Below the pieces are notes generated by a model. The model ran no database searches, was not told where the DNA came from, and was given only the letters and a program-made list of their open reading frames with translations. From Escherichia phage vB_EcoM-RPN242, in the sequence record OL656110.1: DNA of 64,000 nucleotides, one strand, 5' to 3'. Position 1 is the first letter of the stretch, and every line of letters begins with the position of its first letter. Made by a program: the position numbers and the translations under genes. Below are positions 1 through 54,090 of the stretch, one piece after another.

Positions 1-820
1 TCCAGCGATCAATACCACCGTTGTACAGTACCGTCACAGGGAGCTTGGCTTTCTCTTTGACATGGCGACCTTTCATGATGCTTATGTTGAAGTTCCAACC
101 CAGCAGATCTTTGTCTTCCTTCACCTGAGAACGGGTGATAAACCAGATCAAGTTGGAGGATAAGAAGCCCTGTTTGCCGCCTTTGATGTTAGGCTCGGCA
201 TATTGGTTGCCGATCTCATCGTAATAGGAGTTGATCCAAACACACACGAGATTTTTGCTGTTGATTTCGGGAGTCATGACACGCCAGAAGCTGTTAAGGG
301 CACGGGCGCGGGTCATGTCCTGAGTGTCGTTCCCTTTGATCGCATCTTCAACTTCCTTGGTGGAGGGAAGTTGGCTGATAGAGTCGATGAAGATTATAAC
401 ATGGTCGCCTTTCTTGACTTCCTGTAGGATCTGCAGCAAGCGGATCTTGGTCTGTTCAACGTTGTCGATCGGTACGTACAGGACGCGGTCCATGTCAATG
501 CCCATAGAGGTCCAGTAATCGGCGTTGGCACCCTTTTCTGAGTCAGCAAATACACAGATAGCGTCAGGGAACTTGTCCATGTACGCCTTGACGTCCACCA
601 GACCGAACATCGTTTTGAAGGTACGGGAATCACCCACCATCATCTTGATACCGGAGATCAGACCGCCGTCAATACGCCCAGACCATGCGATATCGATCAG
701 GGGAATACCAGTAGAACAGATGATAGACGGTTCCAGAGCGTCGGATTTGGACAGCACTGAAGCCTGGTCATCGTGTTTCTTAGCAACCTTCAGCATGCGG
801 TCCATTAATGAACTGGCCAT
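1..820 (-). CDS. uvsX: UvsX-like RecA-family recombinase (partial; C-terminal end lies beyond window start)
   Basis: Manual minus-strand translation from ATG at 820 gives MASSLMDRMLKVAKK...GIPLIDIAWSG...MMVGDSRTFKT...VCVFADSE..., collinear with T4 UvsX; no in-frame stop before position 1; AGGAAG RBS upstream. Not in ORF track because incomplete. Confidence 0.85.
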   Translation of the reverse strand, partial: MASSLMDRMLKVAKKHDDQASVLSKSDALEPSIICSTGIPLIDIAWSGRIDGGLISGIKMMVGDSRTFKTMFGLVDVKAYMDKFPDAICVFADSEKGANADYWTSMGIDMDRVLYVPIDNVEQTKIRLLQILQEVKKGDHVIIFIDSISQLPSTKEVEDAIKGNDTQDMTRARALNSFWRVMTPEINSKNLVCVWINSYYDEIGNQYAEPNIKGGKQGFLSSNLIWFITRSQVKEDKDLLGWNFNISIMKGRHVKEKAKLPVTVLYNGGIDRW

Positions 821-1347
821 TTCACTTCCTCTTTATTGTTGATCGTCGTTAATAATTCTACACCCATAACCTTCTGGGACAAAATGTTAACCGCCTCTTG
901 GATGCTCTTCAGGGACATTGTCTCAACAAGTGACGATGCGTCATTATGCCGGTCGGTTAGGTACATATTGCGCAGATTGTTGTAGTTCGTGCGGTTGATG
1001 CACGCAGTGTTCAGTGCTATATTCAGGATATACATCATCTGTTCAATGGTTACATCCTTTGGCATAGCGTGGATGTAATAGATCGAGCCTTCAAAATAGA
1101 CGTCTACCAGTTCATCTGGTATCTTGATGCCACCACCGGCATACTCTTCGATCATCCTGAACAGAGACTCTGGTTGCTCGCTGGCGATCTTATGCGTAAC
1201 AGTCGCCGAAAGACCGTCGCCTGGTTTAACAGGCCTGTTGTATTCAGTAAGGAATACATTATGTCCGCCGCCGATGATGTGCTCGGCGAATTTGGAGGAT
1301 GCCTGAGCAGCGTTCTCCGCATGGTATGAAACGACGACTGTAAACAT
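805..1347 (-). CDS. hypothetical protein (180 aa)
   Basis: Complete ORF with ATG start; 3' end overlaps uvsX start by 16 nt; no recognisable motif. Confidence 0.6.
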   Translation of the reverse strand: MFTVVVSYHAENAAQASSKFAEHIIGGGHNVFLTEYNRPVKPGDGLSATVTHKIASEQPESLFRMIEEYAGGGIKIPDELVDVYFEGSIYYIHAMPKDVTIEQMMYILNIALNTACINRTNYNNLRNMYLTDRHNDASSLVETMSLKSIQEAVNILSQKVMGVELLTTINNKEEVKWPVH

Positions 1348-1901
1348 TAGAACTCCAGGGTCAGAGGGGTTTCTGCGGACTTATCGTAATCCGCGCCACC
1401 AGCAGCACGCAGGCGATTGCGATCGTTCTTGCGTTTGTGTGCCAATATGTAAGTCTCAATGTCGATCTCCATATAAGAACACGCAGACGACAGGAAGAAC
1501 ATGAGAGTCTCAACGCAAGGATCGTTCATGAATTGCCCAAGGCGGTACGTAACATTGCGATGCCCTACAACACCCAAAGCAGATGGGGTGAATTCGCGAT
1601 TACTAAGGACTTCAAATTCTTCTTCGATCTCACCTTTGGTGCGGTCCACAAGGATGAAGCACAACATGAAGTGTACCACGTCCACCAGTTCATAAACTGC
1701 GTTCGTATGGTCAAACCCGATGTCGTTGCCATAGACCTTCCAGTCACGGGTGGTTTCATCAAGGAACTCTGCCCACTCACGATAGATGGAGTTGATGACT
1801 GCGTTCTGACTCCATACATTCTTCCACTCTTCCCCAAAGTAGGCCACGTTGGTGGCCTTTTGGAGTTCGAGCAGGCTTTTGATATGTCCTGCTGTGATCA
1901 T
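1347..1901 (-). CDS. putative all-alpha NTP pyrophosphatase (dCTPase/dimeric dUTPase/MazG-like)
   Basis: 184 aa; acidic EIEEEFE and YELVDVVHF segments and C-terminal K..N..R pattern reminiscent of T4 gp56-type enzymes; ATGA overlap with neighbour. Tentative. Confidence 0.45.
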   Translation of the reverse strand: MITAGHIKSLLELQKATNVAYFGEEWKNVWSQNAVINSIYREWAEFLDETTRDWKVYGNDIGFDHTNAVYELVDVVHFMLCFILVDRTKGEIEEEFEVLSNREFTPSALGVVGHRNVTYRLGQFMNDPCVETLMFFLSSACSYMEIDIETYILAHKRKNDRNRLRAAGGADYDKSAETPLTLEF

Positions 1902-2467
1902 TTACGTTCTCCGTAGAATTTAACGAACGGTTCCCAACCATCAAATGGATTGAGGAATTCGTAGTCCACTTTCATTTGGTCAATGAAAGCCTCTATATCG
2001 TCCTCTATGATACCAGCACGGTCGGCCTTTGAAATACGGGTGATAGGACATTTCGTACTCAGCGCCCATTCATATTCCTGAGGGGTACGCAGATCGCTCA
2101 CGATATAATGGACGTGGGGGTTCTGCTCTACCAGAGGAAGCTGGAAGCGCTTGAAGAATGCCAGGAACAGATCGGGTTGTACGTAACGCAAGCCCGTATC
2201 GCTGCCTAGATGAAGCCAGATCTGCCGTGGAGTTAAGCCCTTGGGGTTATCAGGGTGGGTGTAAGGAACGTCCTTCACGGCATCCTCTACCTCCGCTGGG
2301 AGCCATGGGTAGATGTAGTTGGCTACACGGCGCAGTTCATCAGAGAAAGAAAGGCGCTGTATGTCCATATCACCCTGTAAGTGGTGATAACTGATCAGGG
2401 ACTCCAAACAGAAGTCCTTACCGGAGCGTTTGCGCCCCGTAAAGAATTCAAGATTTGGGTACATCAT
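1898..2467 (-). CDS. deoxynucleoside monophosphate kinase (T4 gp1-like)
   Basis: 189 aa; N-terminal P-loop FTGRKRSGKDF matches T4 gp1 LSGVKRSGKDT; ATGA overlaps on both sides. Confidence 0.7.
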   Translation of the reverse strand: MMYPNLEFFTGRKRSGKDFCLESLISYHHLQGDMDIQRLSFSDELRRVANYIYPWLPAEVEDAVKDVPYTHPDNPKGLTPRQIWLHLGSDTGLRYVQPDLFLAFFKRFQLPLVEQNPHVHYIVSDLRTPQEYEWALSTKCPITRISKADRAGIIEDDIEAFIDQMKVDYEFLNPFDGWEPFVKFYGERK

Positions 2468-3510
2468 ACTACACCTTCCAGGAACTTAGGATCAACGATC
2501 TTGCGGTCAACCGGAGAATGGGTGAGCGCGGTGTTCAAGCCATGATCCTGAATCAGGTCCAGGTTAATGAGCTTTTCGTTCAGTTTGCAGTGCAGACAGT
2601 ACGCCATCTGTACAATCAGGCCGCGATCCGCATCGTATTCCTTCAGGTGGGCGACCACAGTTTCCCAAGGGCTGCCGATATCACAGTGATGAAGCACGCC
2701 AGTGAACAGATTGCGGATATGGTTCTGGTTGGTCACGTTCTTGAAGTGAATCATGGAGTTGATGAACCCAGCTTCTACTTTGGTGTCCTTCGTGATCTTT
2801 CCCAGCTGCTTCTGGCTGACTTCATTGTTGTAGTAATGAAGATTGTTAGAGAATAGCTTGTACTGACCGACATCAACATCCAGCACCCGAGCAATCACTT
2901 CCTGAAGAATAGAGAACTCAATGAAGTTGATTGAACTCATCCCCCACAGAACATCCTGTGAGCGATTGATGACCGTCAGGTTCAGACGACCTTCAACGAT
3001 GGCGAACAACAGAGCCAGGTTACACACCATGTCCTTAGTCTTCGCTTCGCCGCTCTCGCTGAACTTCGCCAGACCAGCATCCGAATCTAGAGCCGGGTCA
3101 TAGATGGTGAGGTACGCCTGGCGAGTGTTTGGGTTCTTGCGCAGGCGGTTAATAACGCTATCCAGCTGGCCATGGGCGTACAGACGCGGACCATAAGCAG
3201 CTCGCCATGTTACCCCATCATCCGAAAAGTTAGCAGCGCGAGGCAATACGCGTGACAGGAACTTTATGTCGTTGCGGCCTGACAACACCCAGAAGGTCTC
3301 GCCGATGGCAGCGATAGCCGATGAGTTGCGACCTTCAATAGAGAGCCAGCGGTCACGGATGTCGGCGACGGTTATGGTCACGCCATCAAGGAAGCGGGTG
3401 CTATCAGTATTGATTTCAGCATTACCAGGATCAGATTCGATCCCGAATTCACGGATAGCCAAGACAGCCTGCTTCAGCATGTCATTGTTGTTAATTGCTT
3501 TGATTTCCAT
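2464..3510 (-). CDS. thymidylate synthase-fold enzyme (ThyA / pyrimidine hydroxymethylase family) with ~100-aa C-terminal extension
   Basis: 348 aa; collinear with ThyA: AAIGETFWVLSG, NPNTRQAYLTIYDP, catalytic-Cys region DMVCNLALLFAIVEGRLNLTVINRSQDVLWG, then VGQYKLFSNNLHYYN; extra C-terminal domain not found in canonical ThyA. Confidence 0.8.
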   Translation of the reverse strand: MEIKAINNNDMLKQAVLAIREFGIESDPGNAEINTDSTRFLDGVTITVADIRDRWLSIEGRNSSAIAAIGETFWVLSGRNDIKFLSRVLPRAANFSDDGVTWRAAYGPRLYAHGQLDSVINRLRKNPNTRQAYLTIYDPALDSDAGLAKFSESGEAKTKDMVCNLALLFAIVEGRLNLTVINRSQDVLWGMSSINFIEFSILQEVIARVLDVDVGQYKLFSNNLHYYNNEVSQKQLGKITKDTKVEAGFINSMIHFKNVTNQNHIRNLFTGVLHHCDIGSPWETVVAHLKEYDADRGLIVQMAYCLHCKLNEKLINLDLIQDHGLNTALTHSPVDRKIVDPKFLEGVV

Positions 3511-4169
3511 CAGATACTCCCAAAATCACGACAGAGGAATGCCATCACAGCCTGGTCTACTGTTAGGCCGTGAGACTTCATCATACCCGCAGCCACCGTA
3601 GGGAACAAGTCTTTATGTCGTTGACGATGGTCATGAACTCTCTCCCACTTCTCGACCACCAGACTTTCATTGAAGTCCACACCACCGTTACGTGATTTAA
3701 CGCGGGAGATACACGTTTCAAGGGGAGTGTCCATAAAGAGCACAACCAATTCACGTGGTGGGCGTGTCAGGCGGGGGATCCAAGAACTCAATAATGTTGA
3801 TGGAATGATACCTTCGAAAATCACATCATATTTCAAGTATTCTGGTTGGTCAGCAATAGACAACGCGAACAACATCTGCTCAGTGTCCTTCAGGGAATCA
3901 ACCCCCTTGGACTTCGACTTGTCATATTTACCGATACAGACCACGTTGAACGAAGGACAGACAGTCAGCATGACCTTGCCGTTATGGGTCACGACATACG
4001 CCTGAGGATCCCTCTCCGCCAGCTGAGAAGGCACAGTGGATTTACCGCTACCATTGGAGCCTTTGACGTAGTAGATTTGCCCTCGTGCTGGGTAGATCCC
4101 CTTTACGACGGGTGGTTTAAAGAATGTGTGGACGGGGCGCTTCATCAGCCCCTTCAGGGAGTAGGACAT
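3510..4169 (-). CDS. P-loop kinase (nucleotide or DNA-base kinase candidate)
   Basis: Walker A YYVKGSNGSGKST; first ATG at 4169 with GGAG RBS (track start at 4181 is TTG); stop overlaps start of ThyA-fold gene. Confidence 0.7.
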   Translation of the reverse strand: MSYSLKGLMKRPVHTFFKPPVVKGIYPARGQIYYVKGSNGSGKSTVPSQLAERDPQAYVVTHNGKVMLTVCPSFNVVCIGKYDKSKSKGVDSLKDTEQMLFALSIADQPEYLKYDVIFEGIIPSTLLSSWIPRLTRPPRELVVLFMDTPLETCISRVKSRNGGVDFNESLVVEKWERVHDHRQRHKDLFPTVAAGMMKSHGLTVDQAVMAFLCRDFGSI

Positions 4170-4180
4170 AAACTGCTCCA

Positions 4181-4212
4181 ATAAACAAAAGGAGCTGCTA
4201 TTATAGCAGCCC
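4181..4212 (-). terminator. putative rho-independent terminator
   Basis: Hairpin gctgct-attat-agcagc (4194..4210) followed on minus strand by tccttttgtttat. Confidence 0.5.
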
Positions 4213-4244
4213 CTTCATCTATTGAACAGTTTCTGAACTTAAAT

Positions 4245-5081
4245 CTACACAGCTTTCGCTTCAGCCAGAGCCTGTGGAAGCCATTCATTGATCGCCTTAA
4301 CCAGAGACTCAGCATCAGACTCTTTGATCTTCTGACGTTTGGTGAAGGACTTACCGTTCACGTACAGACTGAAGCCCCAGCCACCGGAAACGATAGGCGC
4401 AACGTCGACATACGTATTGGTGCGGGCGTGAAGGTTTTCAGGGTTAGCCAGTTCGGTGACCGGGAACTGGAACCAACGCATGTCTGGGTTCACGTAGCTC
4501 AGGAACACGCCGGGAACAACACCAGCTTCAATCGCCGCCAAGACCGGACCGTGATTAGAAGCGCGAGCCAAGTCAACCATTTCCTCACGTTTGGTGTGAC
4601 GGCGTTTACGCTCTACCAGCGCCGCCTGCGGGGTCAGGGTCTTACCCTTCGATGCTTCTTTCAACATAGAAGACGCCAAGGAACCGATTTTCGCGTCGGA
4701 CGGCTGATTGCCTTCTTCCAGCGCCGCGTTGACTGCATCTTCAACCGCGTCTACCGGGGCGTCGGACACTGGGGCTTCACATGCATCGGCAGAGATCGGT
4801 GCTTCAGCATCAATGGTTTCAGCGACTTTCAGCGATACTTCAGCTTGGGCTTGCTCTTGGGCTTGCGCCAGAGCCTGCTGAGTTTCTTCCTTCTCTTCGG
4901 CGCTCAGACCTTCAATCAGTTCGAAGCCGTTGGCAGCCTGAAGAACACCTTCAACCATACGGCGCAGGGTAACGTTTCCGATGATCAGACCTGCTTCTTT
5001 GATTTCAGCCTGAATAGCAGCAACGTCTTTGCCTTCAATTTCAATTTTGGTTCCAGAATCCACATGAAGAATATATGACAT
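4245..5081 (-). CDS. hypothetical protein with acidic Ala/Glu/Gln-rich low-complexity centre
   Basis: 278 aa complete ORF with ATG start; segment EEKEETQQALAQAQEQAQAEV. Confidence 0.6.
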   Translation of the reverse strand: MSYILHVDSGTKIEIEGKDVAAIQAEIKEAGLIIGNVTLRRMVEGVLQAANGFELIEGLSAEEKEETQQALAQAQEQAQAEVSLKVAETIDAEAPISADACEAPVSDAPVDAVEDAVNAALEEGNQPSDAKIGSLASSMLKEASKGKTLTPQAALVERKRRHTKREEMVDLARASNHGPVLAAIEAGVVPGVFLSYVNPDMRWFQFPVTELANPENLHARTNTYVDVAPIVSGGWGFSLYVNGKSFTKRQKIKESDAESLVKAINEWLPQALAEAKAV

Positions 5082-5151
5082 AATAAAAACCCTTTCGTTA
5101 TTAAGACCGTATCCGCGGCATATTGTTGTTCTGACTGTGTAGTGAGAACAT

Positions 5152-9959: not shown

Positions 9960-10260
9960 GGAACACCCCCACAGTTGTCAGTACGAAACGTACCATAATG
10001 ATAACCAGCAACATCACTGTAGAAAACACTACACGCTTGATCATTTTATCGCGCATGTGGATGAACTGATATGAGAGGATAGCCTCGGCCTGTTGATCGG
10101 CACGAACGTTCGTGTCACGATGTGGGGACAGCGTGTAGAAGTTGATCTGGTACACATACGCATGAACCAGAGTGAAGAACGACTTCACCCAGACCAAGAC
10201 AACCACTAACAACAAAGCGAACGTCAGGAAGTTCGCCAACAACCAATAATCGACCATCAT
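9946..10260 (-). CDS. small membrane protein (two predicted TM helices)
   Basis: 104 aa; hydrophobic segments LLANFLTFALLLVVVLVWV and VVFSTVMLLVIIMV. Confidence 0.5.
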   Translation of the reverse strand: MMVDYWLLANFLTFALLLVVVLVWVKSFFTLVHAYVYQINFYTLSPHRDTNVRADQQAEAILSYQFIHMRDKMIKRVVFSTVMLLVIIMVRFVLTTVGVFHAAV

Positions 10261-10847
10261 ATACCTCTGTTGAAGTCTGGATTATTCTCAATGAAGTAAG
10301 AGCCACAAGCCATTATCGCAAATGAATCCACAAGGTCATCGATTGGCTTAGGATCCTTAACTTCCAACATATCCATTATACCGCGCATGCTAACATTGAA
10401 CAGTGACTCGAAGTGAGCGATCATGGCGTGTTTATCGGCGTTGCCCTTGTCGGTGAACATCTTCTTCACATGGGATGGCGTCACGATCTGGAAGTCGAAA
10501 TTGTTACGGCGCAGGGCTTGCTTCAACAGTGAGGTATTCTCTGCGGTCTGGCATATGTTGTTGGAATTCTTAGAGTTGCCCATAGCATACCCTTCAAGAG
10601 TGATCACATCCGGCTTCTCAGTCAACAGGACAGCCTCAGCCCATTTACAGATGTTATAGAAGCGTTCTTCTGGGGTCTCCCACTTCGGTTGCTTCATGAT
10701 AAGGATGTTCTGACGAATCTGAGTGCAGTACTTCTCCACAGTATAATATGCGTAGAAGCGCAGATGATCAAAATCAAGAGGGTCTTTATCATCCCAGAAG
10801 CACAGGGATGGACAGCCATAGGAGTAGTCGATTCCGCAATATTTCAT
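10257..10847 (-). CDS. RuvC-like Holliday junction resolvase
   Basis: 196 aa; N-terminal MKYCGIDYS, central ITLEGYAMG and C-terminal DDLVDSFAIMACG match the RuvC catalytic acidic motif arrangement. Confidence 0.5.
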   Translation of the reverse strand: MKYCGIDYSYGCPSLCFWDDKDPLDFDHLRFYAYYTVEKYCTQIRQNILIMKQPKWETPEERFYNICKWAEAVLLTEKPDVITLEGYAMGNSKNSNNICQTAENTSLLKQALRRNNFDFQIVTPSHVKKMFTDKGNADKHAMIAHFESLFNVSMRGIMDMLEVKDPKPIDDLVDSFAIMACGSYFIENNPDFNRGI

Positions 10848-10898
10848 GTAAATAGCCCATAACGAAGTTTCATTGGTGTATGGGCTATTTATGCCGGG

Positions 10899-37049: not shown

Positions 37050-38764
37050 ACCTCAAACACGGCATCAGTGAACCAAGCGGGGAAGAACTCTGGGTTGCGC
37101 ATCATCAGTGATTCAAAAGAAGAATCAAGGATGTACGTCGCAGCCCAGTCATTCACACCCCTGACCGAACGCCCACACATCTGAACGATACGCAGTACCG
37201 CCATCCTGAAGTACGCCGATGGGTCCACGCTGTTGACGTGGGCCACCAGAGGATCACCAAGGTAATCATATGGCACCTTGATCAAGATCTGAAATCGACT
37301 ATAATCGCCTTTGAAGTCATACCCCTCTTCCATGGCCGGACTGGCGATGACACAAGGCGTCTTCGTCCTGAACGCGTGTTCCATGATGTCCATCAGAGCC
37401 TTACGAGTACGAGGAACGTGAATCATATTCCGGTACTTACTGAACTTTTGTAGAGCCAGGGCGCGGTCATAACTGACTGTGTGAATGATGCCAGACTGCC
37501 CAGGGTGGAACGCGATAATTTCATCCACGTATTCAGCCAGCTTCTTCATCTCGTAGTCGCCCATGTTCGCTGTCATCTTCATGATGGGCATGTAGTTGAC
37601 TTTCCGGTTCTCAATCGGGATAGGGTTGCCGATCTGTATCTTGTGGTACTCACCCTCGCGGATACCCAGTGACCGGGCGTACGAGTCAATCCCACAAATG
37701 GTAGCCGACATGTGGACGTGGTAGTCACCCTTGCGGAACAGACCGAACTGGGATACATCAGAGGCGATGACAGGCTTGAACTGAATCATACCCTTGTCCT
37801 TCTCCTGTACGATGAAAGTGCTGGCGTTGGTCTGCCCCATGATACCACAGTAGTCGCTGAGGTTGTGAAGATTATCAATAATATCAGACAGCTTCATCAC
37901 CTGGGCTTCAGTCAGGCGCTCGTCCTCTACCAGTTCCTCAAGAGTTTCCAATAGGGCTTCAACCTTGCCATACAGTTCATCAAATATCGCATGCATCTCA
38001 CCAGACAGGGAATACAGCTTGCCCAATTCGTAGTTCTCTGTGCGGATGATGATATCCTTGATGGTCTCCACGATAGGCACTCCCTCGGGGATCGTAAGCA
38101 ACCCTTCCACAGCCTTTATGTTGTATTCCATGATAGTATGCTCTAGGAGCGTAGAGGGCATCTTATGACACTCGTCAAGGATCAGCATATCGGCACGGTT
38201 TTCCGGCTTCATACAAATCGTCGTACACATCTCCACCATCATGGCGGCGTTGGTGCAGCGCAGGGAGGAGACGTCGGTCCACTGTCTACGCGCCTGAACA
38301 TATGGGCAACGATTCTTACTACAGTGGCCATCACGGCATGCCATACGGCACTGAATGGCGTTGTAGTATAGGTCGGGACTGATGTGGCAACGATAGTTCT
38401 TCTTGCCCTTCAGGATGTCTATCGCCACGGCTTTCTCTGCTGCATACTGATCCTGTAAACCTTTGGTCGGCGTCGTGATAGACGTGCGGAACTGACCATA
38501 CGGGTTGTGCTCAAGAACCAAATGGCGAAGCACGTTATGGATGGTAGTGCCGATGAGGGATTTACCTACACCAGTCGGAGCCTCGATGATCACGTGTTTG
38601 AATTTCTTATTCACAAGGGCATCGATGGCTTCAACGATGCATTCCATCTGGCCGGGGTTGGCGGTGTCATACGGGAAGAACTCAGTGGCAAGAGACTTGA
38701 TGCGGTCTATGCTGACTGGTCCGACGCCGTTAAGCGCCTTGGTATATTGGTTGAATGCTGTCAC
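37046..38764 (-). CDS. DinG/XPD-like superfamily-2 DNA helicase with Fe-S cluster cysteines
   Basis: 572 aa; GTG start preceded by AGGAGGA; Walker A APTGVGKS, DECH box LILDECH, four-Cys cluster YRCH...CRMACRDGHCSKNRC. Confidence 0.7.
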   Translation of the reverse strand: MTAFNQYTKALNGVGPVSIDRIKSLATEFFPYDTANPGQMECIVEAIDALVNKKFKHVIIEAPTGVGKSLIGTTIHNVLRHLVLEHNPYGQFRTSITTPTKGLQDQYAAEKAVAIDILKGKKNYRCHISPDLYYNAIQCRMACRDGHCSKNRCPYVQARRQWTDVSSLRCTNAAMMVEMCTTICMKPENRADMLILDECHKMPSTLLEHTIMEYNIKAVEGLLTIPEGVPIVETIKDIIIRTENYELGKLYSLSGEMHAIFDELYGKVEALLETLEELVEDERLTEAQVMKLSDIIDNLHNLSDYCGIMGQTNASTFIVQEKDKGMIQFKPVIASDVSQFGLFRKGDYHVHMSATICGIDSYARSLGIREGEYHKIQIGNPIPIENRKVNYMPIMKMTANMGDYEMKKLAEYVDEIIAFHPGQSGIIHTVSYDRALALQKFSKYRNMIHVPRTRKALMDIMEHAFRTKTPCVIASPAMEEGYDFKGDYSRFQILIKVPYDYLGDPLVAHVNSVDPSAYFRMAVLRIVQMCGRSVRGVNDWAATYILDSSFESLMMRNPEFFPAWFTDAVFEV

Positions 38765-38811
38765 TTTCTTCCTCCTATGGGATTCGCCTTTAGTTTAACC
38801 GATTCCCAGGA

Positions 38812-38850
38812 ACGAAAAAGCCGGAGCATTGTACTCCGGCTTTCTCTTTT
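38812..38850. terminator. bidirectional rho-independent terminator
   Basis: agccggag-cattgta-ctccggct hairpin (38819..38841) with T-run on plus strand and A-run on the other side. Confidence 0.65.
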
Positions 38851-38892
38851 GCCATACCCTGATTGCAGAGCCTGGCCGCGCGTCAGATAGAA

Positions 38893-39171
38893 TTACTTGC
38901 CGTTGGCAGCGTTCTTCAGACCTTCGCCCACTTTGAATTTCACAACGTTTTTCGCCGCGATCTGAATGGTCTGGCCGTTCAGAGGGTTGCGACCTTCACG
39001 CGCTTCTTGGTGTTTCACTTCGAACGCACCGAAGCCAACCAGCTGTACAGATGCGCCTGCAGCAACTGCAGTTTTAACACCGTCGATAAAGGATGCCACT
39101 ACTTTCTCCGCTTCGCCTTTGGTGATATTCTGGGTCGAAGCAATGTGGGCAACAAATTCAGTACGATTCAT
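38893..39171 (-). CDS. HU/IHF-family DNA-binding protein
   Basis: 92 aa; MNRTEFV ... FGAFEVKHQEAREGRNPLNGQTIQIAAKNVVKFKVGEGLKNA, the HU beta-arm signature. Confidence 0.8.
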   Translation of the reverse strand: MNRTEFVAHIASTQNITKGEAEKVVASFIDGVKTAVAAGASVQLVGFGAFEVKHQEAREGRNPLNGQTIQIAAKNVVKFKVGEGLKNAANGK

Positions 39172-48833: not shown

Positions 48834-50852
48834 TTAGAACACAACTTTCACAGTGCGGTTGAACGAACCGCTCACCTTCACGAACACGTGGTTGCGTTGG
48901 GTGGTAGAGAAGCCCAGACCGGACAGCTGCTCAGTGCTTGGCTGTACTTTAATCTTACCACCTAACATTTCAAAAACCTTGCGGTGTTTATCAAGTTCCG
49001 GCTTCAGATATTCGTTATAGAAACCACGGGTGCCGACAGGGTTAGCACAACCTTCCAGGATGAAGAACACGTGCTTGTTGCCAGTCTGCTCGCCGTCCCA
49101 ATGGTTTGGTGAGTTCAGAACCAGCTGTACCTTCTGGAAGACGGAGGTCTTGATGCCCCAGATTTCCTGAGAGCGAGCGTCGTCTTTCAGGGTAGAACTG
49201 ATGTCAACCACCTGACCAGCGCGAACCTGAACCACAACAGCCAACGTGCGATCTTTGTTGCCCAGGCCAGGGTGTGAGAAGCGCTTAGTCTGGCCTTTGT
49301 ATTCAACTTCGATTTCGAAACCAACGTCACAGGTTTCACGCTTGTTGAAGTTGGTGACATAGAACTCATAATTCCCGTCACGCAACTTGCGTTCATCGCT
49401 AAAGAAGATGTTCTCCACCGGACGGCGGTTTGGATCAATGCCGTCCATACCGTTCATGTCGATGTCCAGAGTTGCGCCAGTTGTCGAACGACGGTTGCGA
49501 AAATATACGTGGTTGTGAAGAGGATCGTTCATGCTCAGATCCAGGTCGTCGTTGTTATGCCAAGCCAGTGACACGCGGAGGAAGCTGTCGACATTGCCGC
49601 CTGCGGTCTTCACGCGCTCTTTGATGGAGTCGGCCACTTCGCCATTGTACGACCAGCTGAAGCCGTTGTTCCACTTGAACAGGTTAGGAGCGCCTGCGGT
49701 AGCCGGAGCGATCAGGGACATCAGGTTGCCAATGTGAGAGTTTTCGACCAGCACTTCTAGGGAATGCGCCTTTGGCAACACGTTGGTCAGGAAGTCGTCG
49801 ATCGTGATCTCTTCAACCTTGTCCAGGGACTTTGTCGGAGTCTTCACTTCAGACGCCAGCTGAGCAAACGGGTCCATCTTCTTCTGAGCTGCCAGATCGG
49901 CGAACAGAACGTTGTTGATGGTCAGATCGTCATACACGGCATAACGGCGACCCAGTGAATCAGTCAGACCCAGCGCTTCGACTTCTTTCTGCGCGTTTTC
50001 AATCATCGACTTCGTGACCAGCGCGGTTGGGCGCTTGTAGTTCGTCGGAGCGACTTTGGCTTCAAAGGACTTCACGGCGGTTTCCAGATCCCGGCCTTCA
50101 TTGAGGTCTACCAGCAGAGAGCCAATCACGGTATTACGAATGCCGTGAGGGGTATGACCGTTTGCACGGTAGCCAGTGCGCCAAGCCCACAGAGCGCGTT
50201 TCTCTTCTGCAGTTTGTTCGTACAGGGTCTTGTTCACCACGAACGCCTGCACTGCCGCTTTGTGCTCTTCACCGCGATACAGAGAATTCTGGTCGATCAA
50301 TTCCAGAACGATTTCAGCCGATTCCAGAGACAGTTCACGCAGGCCGCGCTCAAACACTTCAATCGCCTGGCGGATTTCACCCTTCTTAGAAGCGATGGTA
50401 TCTGCCCGCAGAACATAGCTGCTCAGCAGGTCGGTGTGGAAGTGGTTGTAGGTGCGGACAATACCGTCTTTCATTTCGTGATTCGACCCAACACCAACTT
50501 TCTTGGTGTCGTTGAAGTACACGTCGACGATTGCGTGCTGCTTAACATATGCTGACAGCGCCGCAGCGACAACGTCGTATTCGTTACCCAACTGAATGTT
50601 ATCCCAGATAGAGATCACGTTCAGGTCGGAGTCGATGGTGACCACACCGCCGATGTTACGGATGAATTGTTTACAGCAGGTGCAGTCGTGCTCGGTACGC
50701 TCACGATAAAGCGGGTTAGTGCCAGCAGGGAAAGAAGACAGATACAGATCCCACAGAGCATCTTTATCGATGTTGGTCATGAACAGACCAGTTGCTGACA
50801 TGGCCCGCACGTTATTGTTGACAGCTACTGCGAAGGACTTAAAATCTGACAT
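48834..50852 (-). CDS. large hypothetical protein (672 aa) with N-terminal Cys cluster
   Basis: ATG start with AGGAAGATTACATC leader; HDCTCCKQF near N-terminus; no Walker or polymerase motifs recognised. Confidence 0.7.
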   Translation of the reverse strand: MSDFKSFAVAVNNNVRAMSATGLFMTNIDKDALWDLYLSSFPAGTNPLYRERTEHDCTCCKQFIRNIGGVVTIDSDLNVISIWDNIQLGNEYDVVAAALSAYVKQHAIVDVYFNDTKKVGVGSNHEMKDGIVRTYNHFHTDLLSSYVLRADTIASKKGEIRQAIEVFERGLRELSLESAEIVLELIDQNSLYRGEEHKAAVQAFVVNKTLYEQTAEEKRALWAWRTGYRANGHTPHGIRNTVIGSLLVDLNEGRDLETAVKSFEAKVAPTNYKRPTALVTKSMIENAQKEVEALGLTDSLGRRYAVYDDLTINNVLFADLAAQKKMDPFAQLASEVKTPTKSLDKVEEITIDDFLTNVLPKAHSLEVLVENSHIGNLMSLIAPATAGAPNLFKWNNGFSWSYNGEVADSIKERVKTAGGNVDSFLRVSLAWHNNDDLDLSMNDPLHNHVYFRNRRSTTGATLDIDMNGMDGIDPNRRPVENIFFSDERKLRDGNYEFYVTNFNKRETCDVGFEIEVEYKGQTKRFSHPGLGNKDRTLAVVVQVRAGQVVDISSTLKDDARSQEIWGIKTSVFQKVQLVLNSPNHWDGEQTGNKHVFFILEGCANPVGTRGFYNEYLKPELDKHRKVFEMLGGKIKVQPSTEQLSGLGFSTTQRNHVFVKVSGSFNRTVKVVF

Positions 50853-50966: not shown

Positions 50967-51955
50967 TTATTCAGAAGAACCATATCGTTCTGTCCATTTA
51001 GGACATTTCAAAGGTTCCCACCCTCTATTGAAACGTTCGATAATGCTGTTTGTCGCATTAAAAGCCTTCAGGTCTTTTGTTCTGTACACATGCATGAGGG
51101 CTTCCGCTCTTTTCATTGTTTTTATTGCTTCAAGGAATTTATCAGCTTTTGACCAATACGCATCATTGTCGGGGTTCCATTTACCCTTCTCCCAAGGCAT
51201 CTTAGCCAACATGCCTTTCTGAGCGTTTTCTTTCTGTTTGGCGCGTTGCTCTGGTGTGAATGAGTTGGTTAAGTCCTTCCCATAATTGGGATTGAGTTCC
51301 CCAAGTTTAGCTTTACTGGCACGTTCAGAAAATTGTTCTAAATCTATGTTGGCGCGGCGTTTCTCTAAAACCCGCCTTTTATATTCAGGATCAGAAGCCA
51401 TCCTTTCATGGATTTTCATCAATCCTTTGGTAATTTTCTTGACTTGCTCTGGGGTTCTCTTATATCCATATTGGGGATTATTCTTTCCTCTTCTCCCATA
51501 CATTGGGTTGTTTGCCCCGACGCATTTGGAGACACCCTTTGTGAGTTTGGATATTCTTTGTCCAAATTCTTTCCTTAACTTTTCGTAAAGGTGAGAATTA
51601 AATTTTATACCCGTTGGTGTATACCTACCCCCACGGCTCATCAAAAGAACAGCATATACCATATCAGAATTCGGGAAAGCCAAGGCCAAGCATACATGGA
51701 CAAGATAATGTTGTCTGCCTGTTAATCGAACCAAATTTATCTTATCTTTAGAATATTCAGGGAACATGCTCTTGGGAAGGATGTGGTGCAATTCAGTGTA
51801 GTCACCATCAGAATATTTGAAAGATTGAACCATCATCAAATACTTCTTGATGAAATGCGGTTTACCGCCTTTAGAAATCAATAATTCGTAAAACATAACA
51901 GGAACTCCAAATGAAAGTTCCTGTTATAATATACTTTCTTAACTCACAAAGTAAG
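50860..51955 (-). mobile_element. free-standing homing-endonuclease insertion (candidate mobile element)
   Basis: AT-rich island holding only the HNH gene, inserted between two conserved-looking genes and bounded by intergenic AT-rich sequence on both sides. Confidence 0.45.
50967..51896 (-). CDS. HNH homing endonuclease with NUMOD-like repeats
   Basis: 309 aa; HNH core ELHHILPKS ... N ... H; repeated NPMYGRRGKNNPQYG and NPNYGK motifs; ATG start with GGAG RBS. Confidence 0.75.
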   Translation of the reverse strand: MFYELLISKGGKPHFIKKYLMMVQSFKYSDGDYTELHHILPKSMFPEYSKDKINLVRLTGRQHYLVHVCLALAFPNSDMVYAVLLMSRGGRYTPTGIKFNSHLYEKLRKEFGQRISKLTKGVSKCVGANNPMYGRRGKNNPQYGYKRTPEQVKKITKGLMKIHERMASDPEYKRRVLEKRRANIDLEQFSERASKAKLGELNPNYGKDLTNSFTPEQRAKQKENAQKGMLAKMPWEKGKWNPDNDAYWSKADKFLEAIKTMKRAEALMHVYRTKDLKAFNATNSIIERFNRGWEPLKCPKWTERYGSSE

Positions 51956-53149
51956 TTACTTTTTAAATAAATTTAGTAGGTTTTTAGAACCAGATGTCGC
52001 TTTAGGTTGTCCTTCCCCATCGTATCCAACCTTCCCGCGCGGTTTTTTACCTTGCTGTACAGCCTCTACACAACGGGTATATTTCTGAAGTTCACAAAAC
52101 ATATTTTCTCCTGCCATTATATTTAAATGGCGATCCCAAGGCTCTTCCACAGACCAAAATTCTTCCCTGTTATACCCAAGAGGACCATAAACTGCGTCCT
52201 GGTTGTCCCGTAGCCAGAAGATGCATTCTTCGTGGGTCATACCGTCTTTGTTCAGGAACAGCAGATCAATACCTGCGCGACAGCCTGGTCCAGCAACCGT
52301 GAAGTGGTTCTCACTGAAAGGATATTCAGGAATGTAAGTGAAGTCTACCCAGATCTGATAGGCCAGGAATGGACCAAGCCCTTCGATGTCGTCATACATG
52401 CGCTGGTATACTTCCAAAGGAGTACCAAGGCGCAGCAGGTCATGGAAATAATTTGGATACTTGTTGACGAATGCCTTCAGGGAGCGGATGACACGCATTG
52501 GCATGTACGGTTCCCAACCTTCGATGGTGTAGAAGTCCGGCTCTGCTTCGGCTATCGCCTTGGCTTCTTTATAATCCATGTTCTGGGTTGAACCGTCTTT
52601 ACAGATCAGATTCACCATCATCCCACCGAAGCGCTGCTCCTTGTGGTTGACAACCATCTCAGGGAAAGCCAGGCATTGCTTCAGGCCGCCCGTGTTGAAG
52701 GCATTGGTGAATACCTTACCGCCGTCGGCCTCGAACTTCTGAAGTCGTTCGCGGGTTGCATCGAGGTTGATCTCGGCGAATTCTTTGATCGTCATCGCGC
52801 CGCCGATAGCCTGGATTGGATCCCAGAGGTTGAACATGCGGAACATCACGCAGTTGAACATCTTGTCGGCCATACCCAGAGCATCGTTGTTGACAATGTT
52901 GTTGATCAGGTTGAGAGACTGCCTGTCGTGCTCTCTCCGGACATTACAGAACTTGACCTGCCGTAGTATGGGATTATCAGTCCAAGGAGCAGGAAGGCGC
53001 TGGACGTCCTTCTTGACGTGGATCTGATAACGATCGCGCATCCATTCGTAAGACAGGCGGGTATGGGTCGGACTGAGAACCGGTTTGGCCGACTTTATCT
53101 TTTCTTCACGGACACCGCAGTACGGGACGTCTAGGGCTTTATCTTTCAT
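51956..53149 (-). CDS. hypothetical enzyme-sized protein (397 aa)
   Basis: ATG start with AAGAGGATACC leader; no motif recognised. Confidence 0.65.
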   Translation of the reverse strand: MKDKALDVPYCGVREEKIKSAKPVLSPTHTRLSYEWMRDRYQIHVKKDVQRLPAPWTDNPILRQVKFCNVRREHDRQSLNLINNIVNNDALGMADKMFNCVMFRMFNLWDPIQAIGGAMTIKEFAEINLDATRERLQKFEADGGKVFTNAFNTGGLKQCLAFPEMVVNHKEQRFGGMMVNLICKDGSTQNMDYKEAKAIAEAEPDFYTIEGWEPYMPMRVIRSLKAFVNKYPNYFHDLLRLGTPLEVYQRMYDDIEGLGPFLAYQIWVDFTYIPEYPFSENHFTVAGPGCRAGIDLLFLNKDGMTHEECIFWLRDNQDAVYGPLGYNREEFWSVEEPWDRHLNIMAGENMFCELQKYTRCVEAVQQGKKPRGKVGYDGEGQPKATSGSKNLLNLFKK

Positions 53150-53217: not shown

Positions 53218-54090
53218 TTAATCGATACGGGTCAGTTGGGTGATAGATGATTGCACTGGGCTGGCCACATAGATACGGACGTTGGCTTTCCATTCACCCC
53301 AGATCAACGGCAGAGTTGGGAAGTTGTCTTCATTGAAAACAAACACGGGAATGTAGCTCTCGACTGTTTCGCCAGAGAACGCCTGAAAGCCCATCTTGGT
53401 GTATCCCATGATCTCGTCAATAAAATCGAACGGAGCGAAGGCAACACCAGCGTGTTCGTTAGAACCGAGCTGGCCTGGAATGGCCGTGCCCGTCAGAATG
53501 ATTTCGGTGATCTGGCGCTTAGGCTCGGTGGTCAACATATCAGAGAAGTCAGGCTCTTTGAAGGTTGCCATGTTCTTCAGGAACTTGCCAGCCGGGTACT
53601 CTTTGCCGTCGACAGTGATGGTGTCCACCACTTTGATGCACGCCTGAGGGAATTCCCCTTCGATGCGCAGACTTTCGCGTGGGAAGCCTTTGTTGTAGTA
53701 GTAATCCAGTGCAGGCACAACTTCACCTTCATTACGGATGAACTTGCTCATGTTAGAGGCATACACGCGCTGTAGGCATTCGTCACCGTCGAAACCAGCA
53801 ATATGAGCCACACCGTCGTTGACTGTTGTGATGTCGCCCTGGGCGTCCATGATCTGGCGCATGATGTCTTTGATGTCGACAACAACGGGTTCTTTCAGGA
53901 CTCGCGGAGATGCAGTGAACTCAATTTTCACCTCGTGGTCGAAATACGCCGCTTCCAGCAGTTCACGGGTTTCTTCCAGCACCAGTTTCGCCTGATTGCG
54001 GATCTTACCAAAGTCGGGCGATGTGACGTCGCCCTTTGCATTACCGAAAGCCAGATTCAGATTCACGTTCTTGGAAAATGTAGTTGTCAT
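53218..54090 (-). CDS. hypothetical protein (290 aa) immediately downstream of regA
   Basis: Complete ORF with ATG start; occupies the position where T4 carries gene 43. Confidence 0.65.
   Translation of the reverse strand: MTTTFSKNVNLNLAFGNAKGDVTSPDFGKIRNQAKLVLEETRELLEAAYFDHEVKIEFTASPRVLKEPVVVDIKDIMRQIMDAQGDITTVNDGVAHIAGFDGDECLQRVYASNMSKFIRNEGEVVPALDYYYNKGFPRESLRIEGEFPQACIKVVDTITVDGKEYPAGKFLKNMATFKEPDFSDMLTTEPKRQITEIILTGTAIPGQLGSNEHAGVAFAPFDFIDEIMGYTKMGFQAFSGETVESYIPVFVFNEDNFPTLPLIWGEWKANVRIYVASPVQSSITQLTRID

Follow-up and report, generated by a model that had tools for sequence, protein, structure and literature searches.

Here we describe a group of nucleotide and DNA-modification genes near the start of a 64,000-nucleotide window, which is the whole stretch of DNA analysed, from Escherichia phage vB_EcoM-RPN242 (OL656110.1). 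At its center are a P-loop kinase of 219 amino acids (3510..4169, minus strand) and a 348-amino-acid protein with the fold of thymidylate synthase (TS; ThyA in E. coli) (2464..3510, minus strand). A preliminary description made from the sequence had proposed a candidate thymidine-modification cluster here, and all of the open reading frames (ORFs) that it named are present and lie on the minus strand. The region is very probably the front end of the thymidine-hypermodification pathway of Ackermannviridae, covering its pre-replicative half and the first step after replication. The modification reading is thus supported, but not its status as an open question, since the system has been published and experimentally characterised in this family.

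In the direction of transcription the kinase comes first, followed by the ThyA-fold protein, a T4 gp1-type deoxynucleoside monophosphate (dNMP) kinase (189 amino acids, 1898..2467), an all-alpha NTP pyrophosphatase of the dUTPase_2/MazG-like kind (184 amino acids, 1347..1901), and a phage ACT-like domain protein (180 amino acids, 805..1347), all on the minus strand. Stop and start codons overlap at every junction, with TGATG at 3510, ATGA at 2464-2467, ATGA at 1898-1901, and TAATG at 1347, and because of these four overlaps the five genes are translationally coupled. The same five-gene order and the same overlaps, judged by coordinates, occur in Salmonella phage ViI. The overlap at 3510 had been described before in the opposite direction; since the kinase is upstream in this minus-strand run, the overlap is between the stop codon of the kinase gene and the start codon of the ThyA-like gene, and not the reverse. 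Directly upstream of the kinase gene is a terminator-like G+C hairpin with a T-run (4188..4216, minus strand), recognised by a consensus match only, which probably ends the preceding transcription unit and would mark the 5' boundary of the coupled run. Sigma-70-type promoter matches around the cluster are not in excess (10 found, 8.6 expected in shuffled sequence), and because this count is close to that of shuffled sequence we claim no promoter. The kinase starts at the ATG at 4169, which has a GGAG 7 nucleotides upstream and gives the N-terminus MSYSLKGL, as in ViI gp67. This ribosome-binding site and the ViI gp67 N-terminus rule out the TTG at 4181 as the start.

By megablast, region 800-5100 of the window is matched in 269 phage records, nearly all of them Ackermannviridae. 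The best relatives are Escherichia phages vB_EcoM-ZQ1 and YX22 at 98.3% DNA identity, and the Agtrevirus-type phages AG3, SKML-39, and ChubbyThor are about 91% identical. These relatives indicate that the window is a stretch of an Aglimvirinae/Agtrevirus-like, ViI-like myovirus, and positions of approximately 35-99 kb of Salmonella phage ViI are collinear with it. Recurrence of the 4.3-kb gene block in 269 phage records rules out a chance pattern.

The 219-amino-acid kinase matches Pfam family PF18748 (HMUDK_HMUD1, "5-hmdU DNA kinase", where 5-hmdU is 5-hydroxymethyldeoxyuridine) at 363 bits against a cut-off of 27 (E 3.8e-109), covering profile positions 1-195 of 196. Its other Pfam matches are all to generic P-loop families and all sub-threshold. 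No thymidylate- or thymidine-kinase family was matched in Pfam or NCBIfam, and no NCBIfam model of any kind matches the protein; a weak match to PHROG 761 (E 2e-6) was seen in the test for membership among dTMP or thymidine kinases. A sequence search of the PDB returned noise-level P-loop matches only and no meaningful relative. The protein has a Walker A motif, GSNGSGKS, near its N-terminus and is 88% identical over 219 amino acids to ViI gp67 (Vi01_061c, YP_004327432), which is syntenic and also lies beside a ThyA homolog. ViI gp67 and gp243 and homologs from M6, PhiW-14, and SP10 move a single ATP phosphate onto 5-hmdU in DNA, forming 5-phosphomethyl-dU (5-PmdU) (Lee et al. 2021, PMC8989533), and a 2026 paper reports the cloning of the 5-hmdU DNA kinases, or 5-HMUDKs, of two other phages for crystallization and enzymatic assays. 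On this evidence from sequence the kinase at 3510..4169 is a 5-HMUDK, which would phosphorylate the hydroxymethyl group of 5-hmdU in DNA. The profile comparison suggested in the preliminary description, between 5-hmdU DNA kinases and thymidylate or thymidine kinases, gave a clear answer in favor of the former. The same description held this kinase to be distinct from the gp1-like dNMP kinase, and no sequence similarity between the two is detectable. The 5-HMUDK gene co-occurs with an adjacent hydroxymethylase gene (see below), with a clade-1 aGPT-Pplase gene in the window, and with an amino-acid:DNA transferase gene in the closest relative.

The 5-HMUDK is labelled "terminase small subunit" in PHROG 800 and in the RefSeq records of ViI, AG3, SKML-39, P46FS4, and MK-13. 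The mislabelled ViI gene, Vi01_061c, is at 10204-10866 of the ViI stretch examined. Because the true small terminase of ViI is Vi01_162c, this label is a propagated annotation error.

The 348-amino-acid protein was said to be collinear with thymidylate synthase and to keep the catalytic Cys region. Both points hold: Pfam Thymidylat_synt (PF00303) matches residues 67-235 above its gathering score (profile 54-219 of 266, E 1e-15), and C163 lies in KDMVCNLAL. The protein is 84 amino acids longer than E. coli ThyA, which has 264. An AlphaFold model (mean pLDDT 94, pTM 0.93) places an all-helical domain at the C-terminus, residues ~250-348, with helices at ~262-336, and the Pfam match stops at residue 235, so that the "about 100 extra C-terminal residues" of the preliminary description are a fair estimate. 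The thymidylate-synthase equivalogs of NCBIfam do not accept the protein: six models matched at 36-58 bits, with cut-offs of 108-405, and none passed. With scores this far under the cut-offs, we reject the reading as a bona fide thymidylate synthase.

The relatives of the protein are instead found among phages with modified uracil. The ViI protein annotated thyA (Vi01_060c) is 77% identical. By blastp, SPO1 gp29, annotated as a dUMP hydroxymethylase, is 34% identical (E 5e-33, 115 bits), and a 348-amino-acid ThyA homolog from the hypermodification cluster of Pseudomonas phage Ab19, a PaMx11 relative, is 36% identical (E 5e-42). E. coli ThyA is 23% identical (E 2e-13, 58 bits), and T4 gp42 gives no blastp match. 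A tblastn search of 50,697 phage records ranked Ackermannviridae first, followed by Abidjanvirus Ab19, the YuA-like Bordetella phage CN1, and SPO1-like Bacillus phages. The Ab19, CN1, and SPO1-like homologs are 33-36% identical (E 1e-26 to 1e-34) and all belong to groups with 5-hmdU or 5-hmdU-derived DNA, and the td genes of T4-type phages follow at 22-25% identity and E of about 1e-4. Homologs that are 33-46% identical over roughly half of the protein also occur on contigs of 0.2-4.7 Mb named Klebsiella pneumoniae, Paenarthrobacter, and Rhizobium rhizogenes, where they are annotated "thymidylate synthase". These could be prophage-borne or cellular hydroxymethylases.

Among solved structures, the best sequence match is the CMP hydroxymethylase MilA (E 1.4e-17), with thymidylate synthases at 4e-9 to 1e-3. 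Foldseek gave the AlphaFold model a probability of 1.00 for the TS/MilA fold and aligned it with MilA over its full length (~351 columns, TMq 0.71) and with thymidylate synthases over ~235-320 columns (TMq 0.50-0.57). MilA has an extra C-terminal five-helix domain, located apart from the active site and required for solubility, which neither TS nor T4 dCMP hydroxymethylase has (PMC5175136). The "extra" C-terminal domain therefore belongs to the features already known for this branch of the superfamily. The comparison of the ThyA-fold protein with synthases and hydroxymethylases, proposed as a check, thus points to the hydroxymethylases, with the equivalog cut-offs missed, SPO1 gp29 at 115 bits versus 58 for E. 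coli ThyA, and MilA as the best structure.

We next consider the active site. Residues C163, E71, Y106, R183, D186, H225, and Y227 correspond to C146, E58, Y94, R166, D169, H207, and Y209 of E. coli TS, and in an alignment of 42 family members C163, E71, Y106, D160, R183, D186, N195, H225, and Y227 are invariant. N195 aligns with TS Asn177, where T4 gp42 has Asp179, and the substrate base is therefore predicted to be uracil rather than cytosine. On the basis of Asn195 and the lack of a blastp match to T4 gp42 we reject the reading as a dCMP or CMP hydroxymethylase. Three residues before C163, D160 aligns with Asp145 of T4 dCMP hydroxymethylase (dCH), where E. coli TS has Leu143. In the T4 dCH ternary complex Asp145 is essential and is proposed to activate the water that is added to the exocyclic methylene, whereas in TS a sealed hydrophobic site (Trp83, Leu143, and the C-terminal tail) favors hydride transfer (PMC6400193). 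TS His147 is replaced by Asn in the 348-amino-acid protein, the Trp80/Trp83 segment is not conserved and reads A-NFSDD, and the TS-type C-terminal lid is absent, with the MilA-like helical domain in its place and the Pfam match ending at profile position 219 of 266. From these residues and relatives we infer that the protein is a dUMP hydroxymethylase, which would convert dUMP and methylene-tetrahydrofolate to 5-hmdUMP.

Downstream of the two central genes, the dNMP kinase (1898..2467) belongs to PHROG 139 (E 2e-47), with 90% identity to ViI orf65. By analogy with the SPO1 and T4 pathways it presumably converts 5-hmdUMP to 5-hmdUDP. The NTP-pyrophosphatase candidate of the preliminary description (1347..1901) is borne out by matches to dUTPase_2 (PF08761, E 6e-9) and PHROG 173 (E 3e-40), and ViI orf63 is 61% identical. 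It is presumably a dUTPase, possibly also a dTTPase, that supplies dUMP and excludes dTTP. A dTTPase role was proposed by Kutter et al. 2011 because phage CBA120 incorporates no 3H-thymidine (PMC3184105), and both the dNMP kinase and the pyrophosphatase fit the published scheme for 5-hmdU phages (PMC8989533). The ACT-like protein (805..1347) matches PF24021 (E 1e-78), and its gene lies just upstream of uvsX. It is conceivable that this protein has a regulatory role in the nucleotide module, small-molecule ligand binding being usual for ACT domains.

A further gene of the pathway, and a candidate for another, lie elsewhere in the window. The clade-1 aGPT-Pplase ("HMUDK_hel", 397 amino acids, 51956..53149, minus strand) matches PF18723 (E 1.8e-78) and is the ortholog of ViI gp160 (76% identity by tblastn), one of five ViI proteins that reconstituted 5-(2-aminoethoxy)methyl-dU (5-NeOmdU) (PMC5889632, Table 3). 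Immediately upstream of it is a gene for a MazG-like pyrophosphatase (290 amino acids, 53218..54090, minus strand) with a match to PHROG 2144 (E 4e-132) and 60% identity to ViI orf161, which would be a second candidate for nucleotide-pool control. Next to the aGPT-Pplase gene is a homing-endonuclease ORF of 309 amino acids (50967-51896, minus strand) with a NUMOD3 motif and a match to PHROG 655 (E 4e-61); ViI has no gene at this place. On its other side is a single 672-amino-acid ORF (48834-50852, minus strand) that matches PHROG 1735 over its full length and corresponds to two adjacent ViI "orf00158" genes of 183 and 491 amino acids. It follows that either the ViI record carries a split or frameshifted version of the gene, or the window carries a fused one.

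No ortholog of the pyridoxal phosphate (PLP) decarboxylase was found in the 64-kb window. Only the genome of the closest relative, YX22, yielded the PLP enzyme along with the second kinase and the serine:DNA transferase; in ViI the genes for these three sit at least 100 kb away. At 90% and 92% identity, respectively, the YX22 amino-acid:DNA transferase (Pfam ADDT) and PLP enzyme correspond to ViI gp247 and gp226. The gene for the YX22 second kinase (HMUD2) is at 37436-39034 (plus strand) of the YX22 sequence examined and is annotated as encoding 532 amino acids, with HMUD2 at residues 236-531, compared to 304 amino acids for ViI gp243. The extra N-terminal region opens with a GIY-YIG-like motif (YxYxI...GRFYVG). 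This could reflect a genuine fusion to a homing-endonuclease-like domain, or else a merge made in annotation.

Together these genes suggest the following pathway. The NTP pyrophosphatase (1347-1901) would turn dUTP, and possibly dTTP, into the monophosphate. The hydroxymethylase would then convert dUMP, methylene-tetrahydrofolate, and water into 5-hmdUMP and tetrahydrofolate, as its homology and residues suggest: Cys163 would attack C6 of dUMP, with the uracil read by Asn195, while Glu71 would activate methylene-tetrahydrofolate and Tyr106 would remove the C5 proton. Because the active site has no TS-type tail to seal it and has Asp160 in place of the TS Leu, the exocyclic methylene would be hydrated rather than reduced, giving 5-hmdUMP. 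The dNMP kinase and the host NDP kinase would produce 5-hmdUTP, to be used by the phage polymerase in place of dTTP. After incorporation, the 5-HMUDK (3510-4169) would convert 5-hmdU in DNA to 5-phosphomethyl-dU, a reaction shown for the 88%-identical ViI ortholog. Genes outside the window would complete the pathway, with serine added by the amino-acid:DNA transferase and decarboxylated by the PLP enzyme to give 5-NeOmdU. Both of these reactions have been shown for the ViI enzymes, with which the enzymes of the closest relative share 90-92% identity. The modification protects phage DNA against restriction endonucleases. In ViI, CBA6, and CBA120, 5-NeOmdU replaces about 40% of thymidines (PMC8989533, PMC5889632), and the remaining ~60% of the 5-hmdU ends as plain thymidine (PMC5889632).

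Several points weigh against this reconstruction. Not all T4 determinants are kept in the 348-amino-acid protein, as the equivalent of T4 dCH Ser94 is Ala, and the TS Arg21 region aligns poorly. We found no direct enzyme assay of any Ackermannviridae ThyA homolog in the literature, and for this reason support for the hydroxymethylase activity comes from homology, from the residues, and from what was seen with 3H-thymidine in CBA120. A literature search likewise found no nucleoside analysis for this phage or any other Aglimvirinae member, the chemistry having been determined on the Kuttervirus phages ViI, CBA6, and CBA120 and on Vibrio phage 1.255.O. Identity between the YX22 second kinase and ViI gp243 is only 47%, and the YX22 protein has the extra N-terminal region of ~235 amino acids, so pathway details could differ in this lineage.

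These last points are also what favors a different final base in Aglimvirinae, made from the same front end: the lineage might stop at 5-hmdU or at O-serinyl-thymidine, or modify another fraction of thymidines or another sequence context. The lack of published chemical data found for the lineage and the divergent second kinase would be in keeping with this, as would the NTP pyrophosphatase, which is only 61% identical to its ViI counterpart. The enzymes that fix the chemistry, the serine:DNA transferase and the PLP decarboxylase, are nonetheless conserved with ViI in the closest relative, and Vibrio phage 1.255.O, which is much more distant, makes this 301-Da nucleoside as well (PMC5889632), making a different final base improbable. 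We consider it similarly unlikely that an uncharacterised conserved gene makes or targets the step from 5-hmdU to thymidine, or else that the product of the lineage differs from 5-NeOmdU. One candidate for such a gene is the clade-1 aGPT-Pplase (51956-53149), which was present in the five-lysate ViI reconstitution and not in the purified-enzyme reconstitution, and which is fused to the kinase in SP10. The other is the ACT-like protein (805-1347), which is co-translated with the nucleotide enzymes.

The preliminary description had left undecided whether the pair is an ordinary thymidylate synthase and nucleotide kinase or a hydroxymethylase and DNA-base kinase, and the 363-bit match to PF18748, the failed TS equivalogs, and the closer match to SPO1 gp29 decide for the latter. 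Ordinary metabolism, with a divergent genuine synthase, a thymidylate or dNMP kinase, and canonical thymidine only, would agree with the many GenBank and RefSeq records that read "thymidylate synthase" and "thymidylate kinase" or "kinase", and with the Pfam Thymidylat_synt match above its gathering score. It is very improbable, given that all TS equivalog models are missed by a wide margin, that a MilA-like helical domain replaces the TS C-terminal lid and Asp replaces Leu143, that the kinase matches only the 5-hmdU DNA kinase family and is close to an enzyme of shown activity, and that the related phage CBA120 excludes 3H-thymidine (PMC3184105). More improbable still is a cytosine-nucleotide hydroxymethylase of the T4 gp42 or MilA kind in a phage that modifies cytosine. 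MilA is indeed the closest solved structure, and the gene lies at the T4 gene 42 position, downstream of uvsX. The base-discriminating residue, however, is Asn195, as in TS and SPO1 gp29, rather than the Asp of T4 gp42 and MilA; a blastp match to gp42 is lacking, the partner kinase acts on 5-hmdU, and CBA120 does not substitute hydroxymethylcytosine (hmC) for cytosine (PMC3184105).

An HU-like protein had also been put forward as a parallel to SPO1, whose DNA contains hydroxymethyluracil (hmU). The gene itself is real (38893..39171, minus strand; Bac_DNA_binding, E 6e-30) and is the ortholog of ViI Vi01_107c (85% identity). The link to SPO1 does not stand: the protein is 38% identical to SPO1 TF1 (57 bits) and 41% identical to E. 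coli HU-alpha (72 bits), and being no closer to TF1 than to HU-alpha it provides no evidence for hmU-type DNA. We have therefore dropped it as support for modified DNA.

The gene pair, its neighbors, and their function are already published for Ackermannviridae, and the initial inference, made from sequence only, was sound: it correctly rediscovered a system that was known. In a published tree the CBA120 "TS" groups with dUMP hydroxymethylases, as do those of ViI and AG3, and CBA120 does not incorporate 3H-thymidine (PMC3184105). Lee et al. 2018 named AG3 and SKML-39 among the ViI-like phages that encode a 5-HMUDK and mapped the 5-HMUDK gene beside the dUMP hydroxymethyltransferase gene in their Fig. 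2 (PMC5889632). The PP35 paper found the hydroxymethyltransferase, both kinases, the PLP enzyme, and both aGPT-Pplases conserved in all Ackermannviridae and left the exact modification of PP35 to be determined (PMC6336734), and a 2024 review restates the conservation of the pathway genes in the family. The present assignment has value for annotation, as many database records, those of ViI and AG3 in RefSeq among them, carry the name "terminase small subunit" for the 5-hmdU DNA kinase and "thymidylate synthase" for the hydroxymethylase. The DNA of a phage with this cluster is to be expected to resist many restriction enzymes. Abnormal behavior of such DNA may also be seen during cloning or nanopore sequencing, or when nuclease-based defences act on it.

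Among known systems, the 5-NeOmdU pathway of ViI (Kuttervirus) is the one with which the locus shares gene order and overlaps, including gp67 (Vi01_061c) beside the thyA-like gene (Vi01_060c). Identities are 88% for the kinase, 77% for the ThyA-like protein, 90% for the dNMP kinase, 61% for the NTP pyrophosphatase, and 76% for the gp160 ortholog. The two phages differ in that the window phage, at ~49% GC, belongs to Aglimvirinae and ViI to Cvivirinae. Only the window has a homing-endonuclease ORF (50967-51896) beside the gp160 ortholog, the two orf158 pieces of ViI are one 672-amino-acid ORF here, and the closest relative has a longer, divergent second kinase.

SPO1 gp29 shares the ThyA fold, the Cys-Asn and FSDDG motifs, the Asp three residues before the Cys, the uracil-reading Asn, and a long helical C-terminal extension, at 34% identity (E 5e-33). 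The C-terminal domains of the two proteins, however, have no significant sequence similarity, and SPO1 lacks a 5-HMUDK, its pathway ending at 5-hmdU with full replacement of T. MilA of Streptomyces rimofaciens (PDB 5JNH, 5B6D) is the best sequence and fold match and has the C-terminal five-helix domain. It is only ~20% identical and acts on a cytosine ribonucleotide with a base-reading Asp, where the window protein has Asn195; His225 and Tyr227 are conserved. E. coli ThyA shares the fold and has equivalents of the catalytic Cys, Glu58, Tyr94, Arg166, Asp169, Asn177, His207, and Tyr209. It differs at Leu143 (Asp in the phage protein), at His147 (Asn), in the Trp80/Trp83 segment, which is changed, and in the C-terminal lid, which is absent from the phage protein, with 23% identity overall.

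The T4 hmC module (gp42, gp1, the gp56 dCTPase, and glucosyltransferases) follows the same logic, in which the normal dNTP is excluded, a dNMP is hydroxymethylated, phosphorylated, and incorporated, and the hydroxymethyl group is then decorated in DNA. The base is cytosine in T4 rather than uracil, and the decoration is glucosylation rather than phosphorylation followed by amino-acid transfer. In both genomes the hydroxymethylase gene is downstream of gp41 and uvsX. The window order at 1347-5081 (gp41 helicase, a small ORF, uvsX, and the hydroxymethylase module) mirrors the T4 order at 20-26 kb (41, 40, uvsX, segA, beta-gt, and 42), with a uracil hydroxymethylase and a DNA-level modifier in the position of the cytosine hydroxymethylase and glucosyltransferase of T4.

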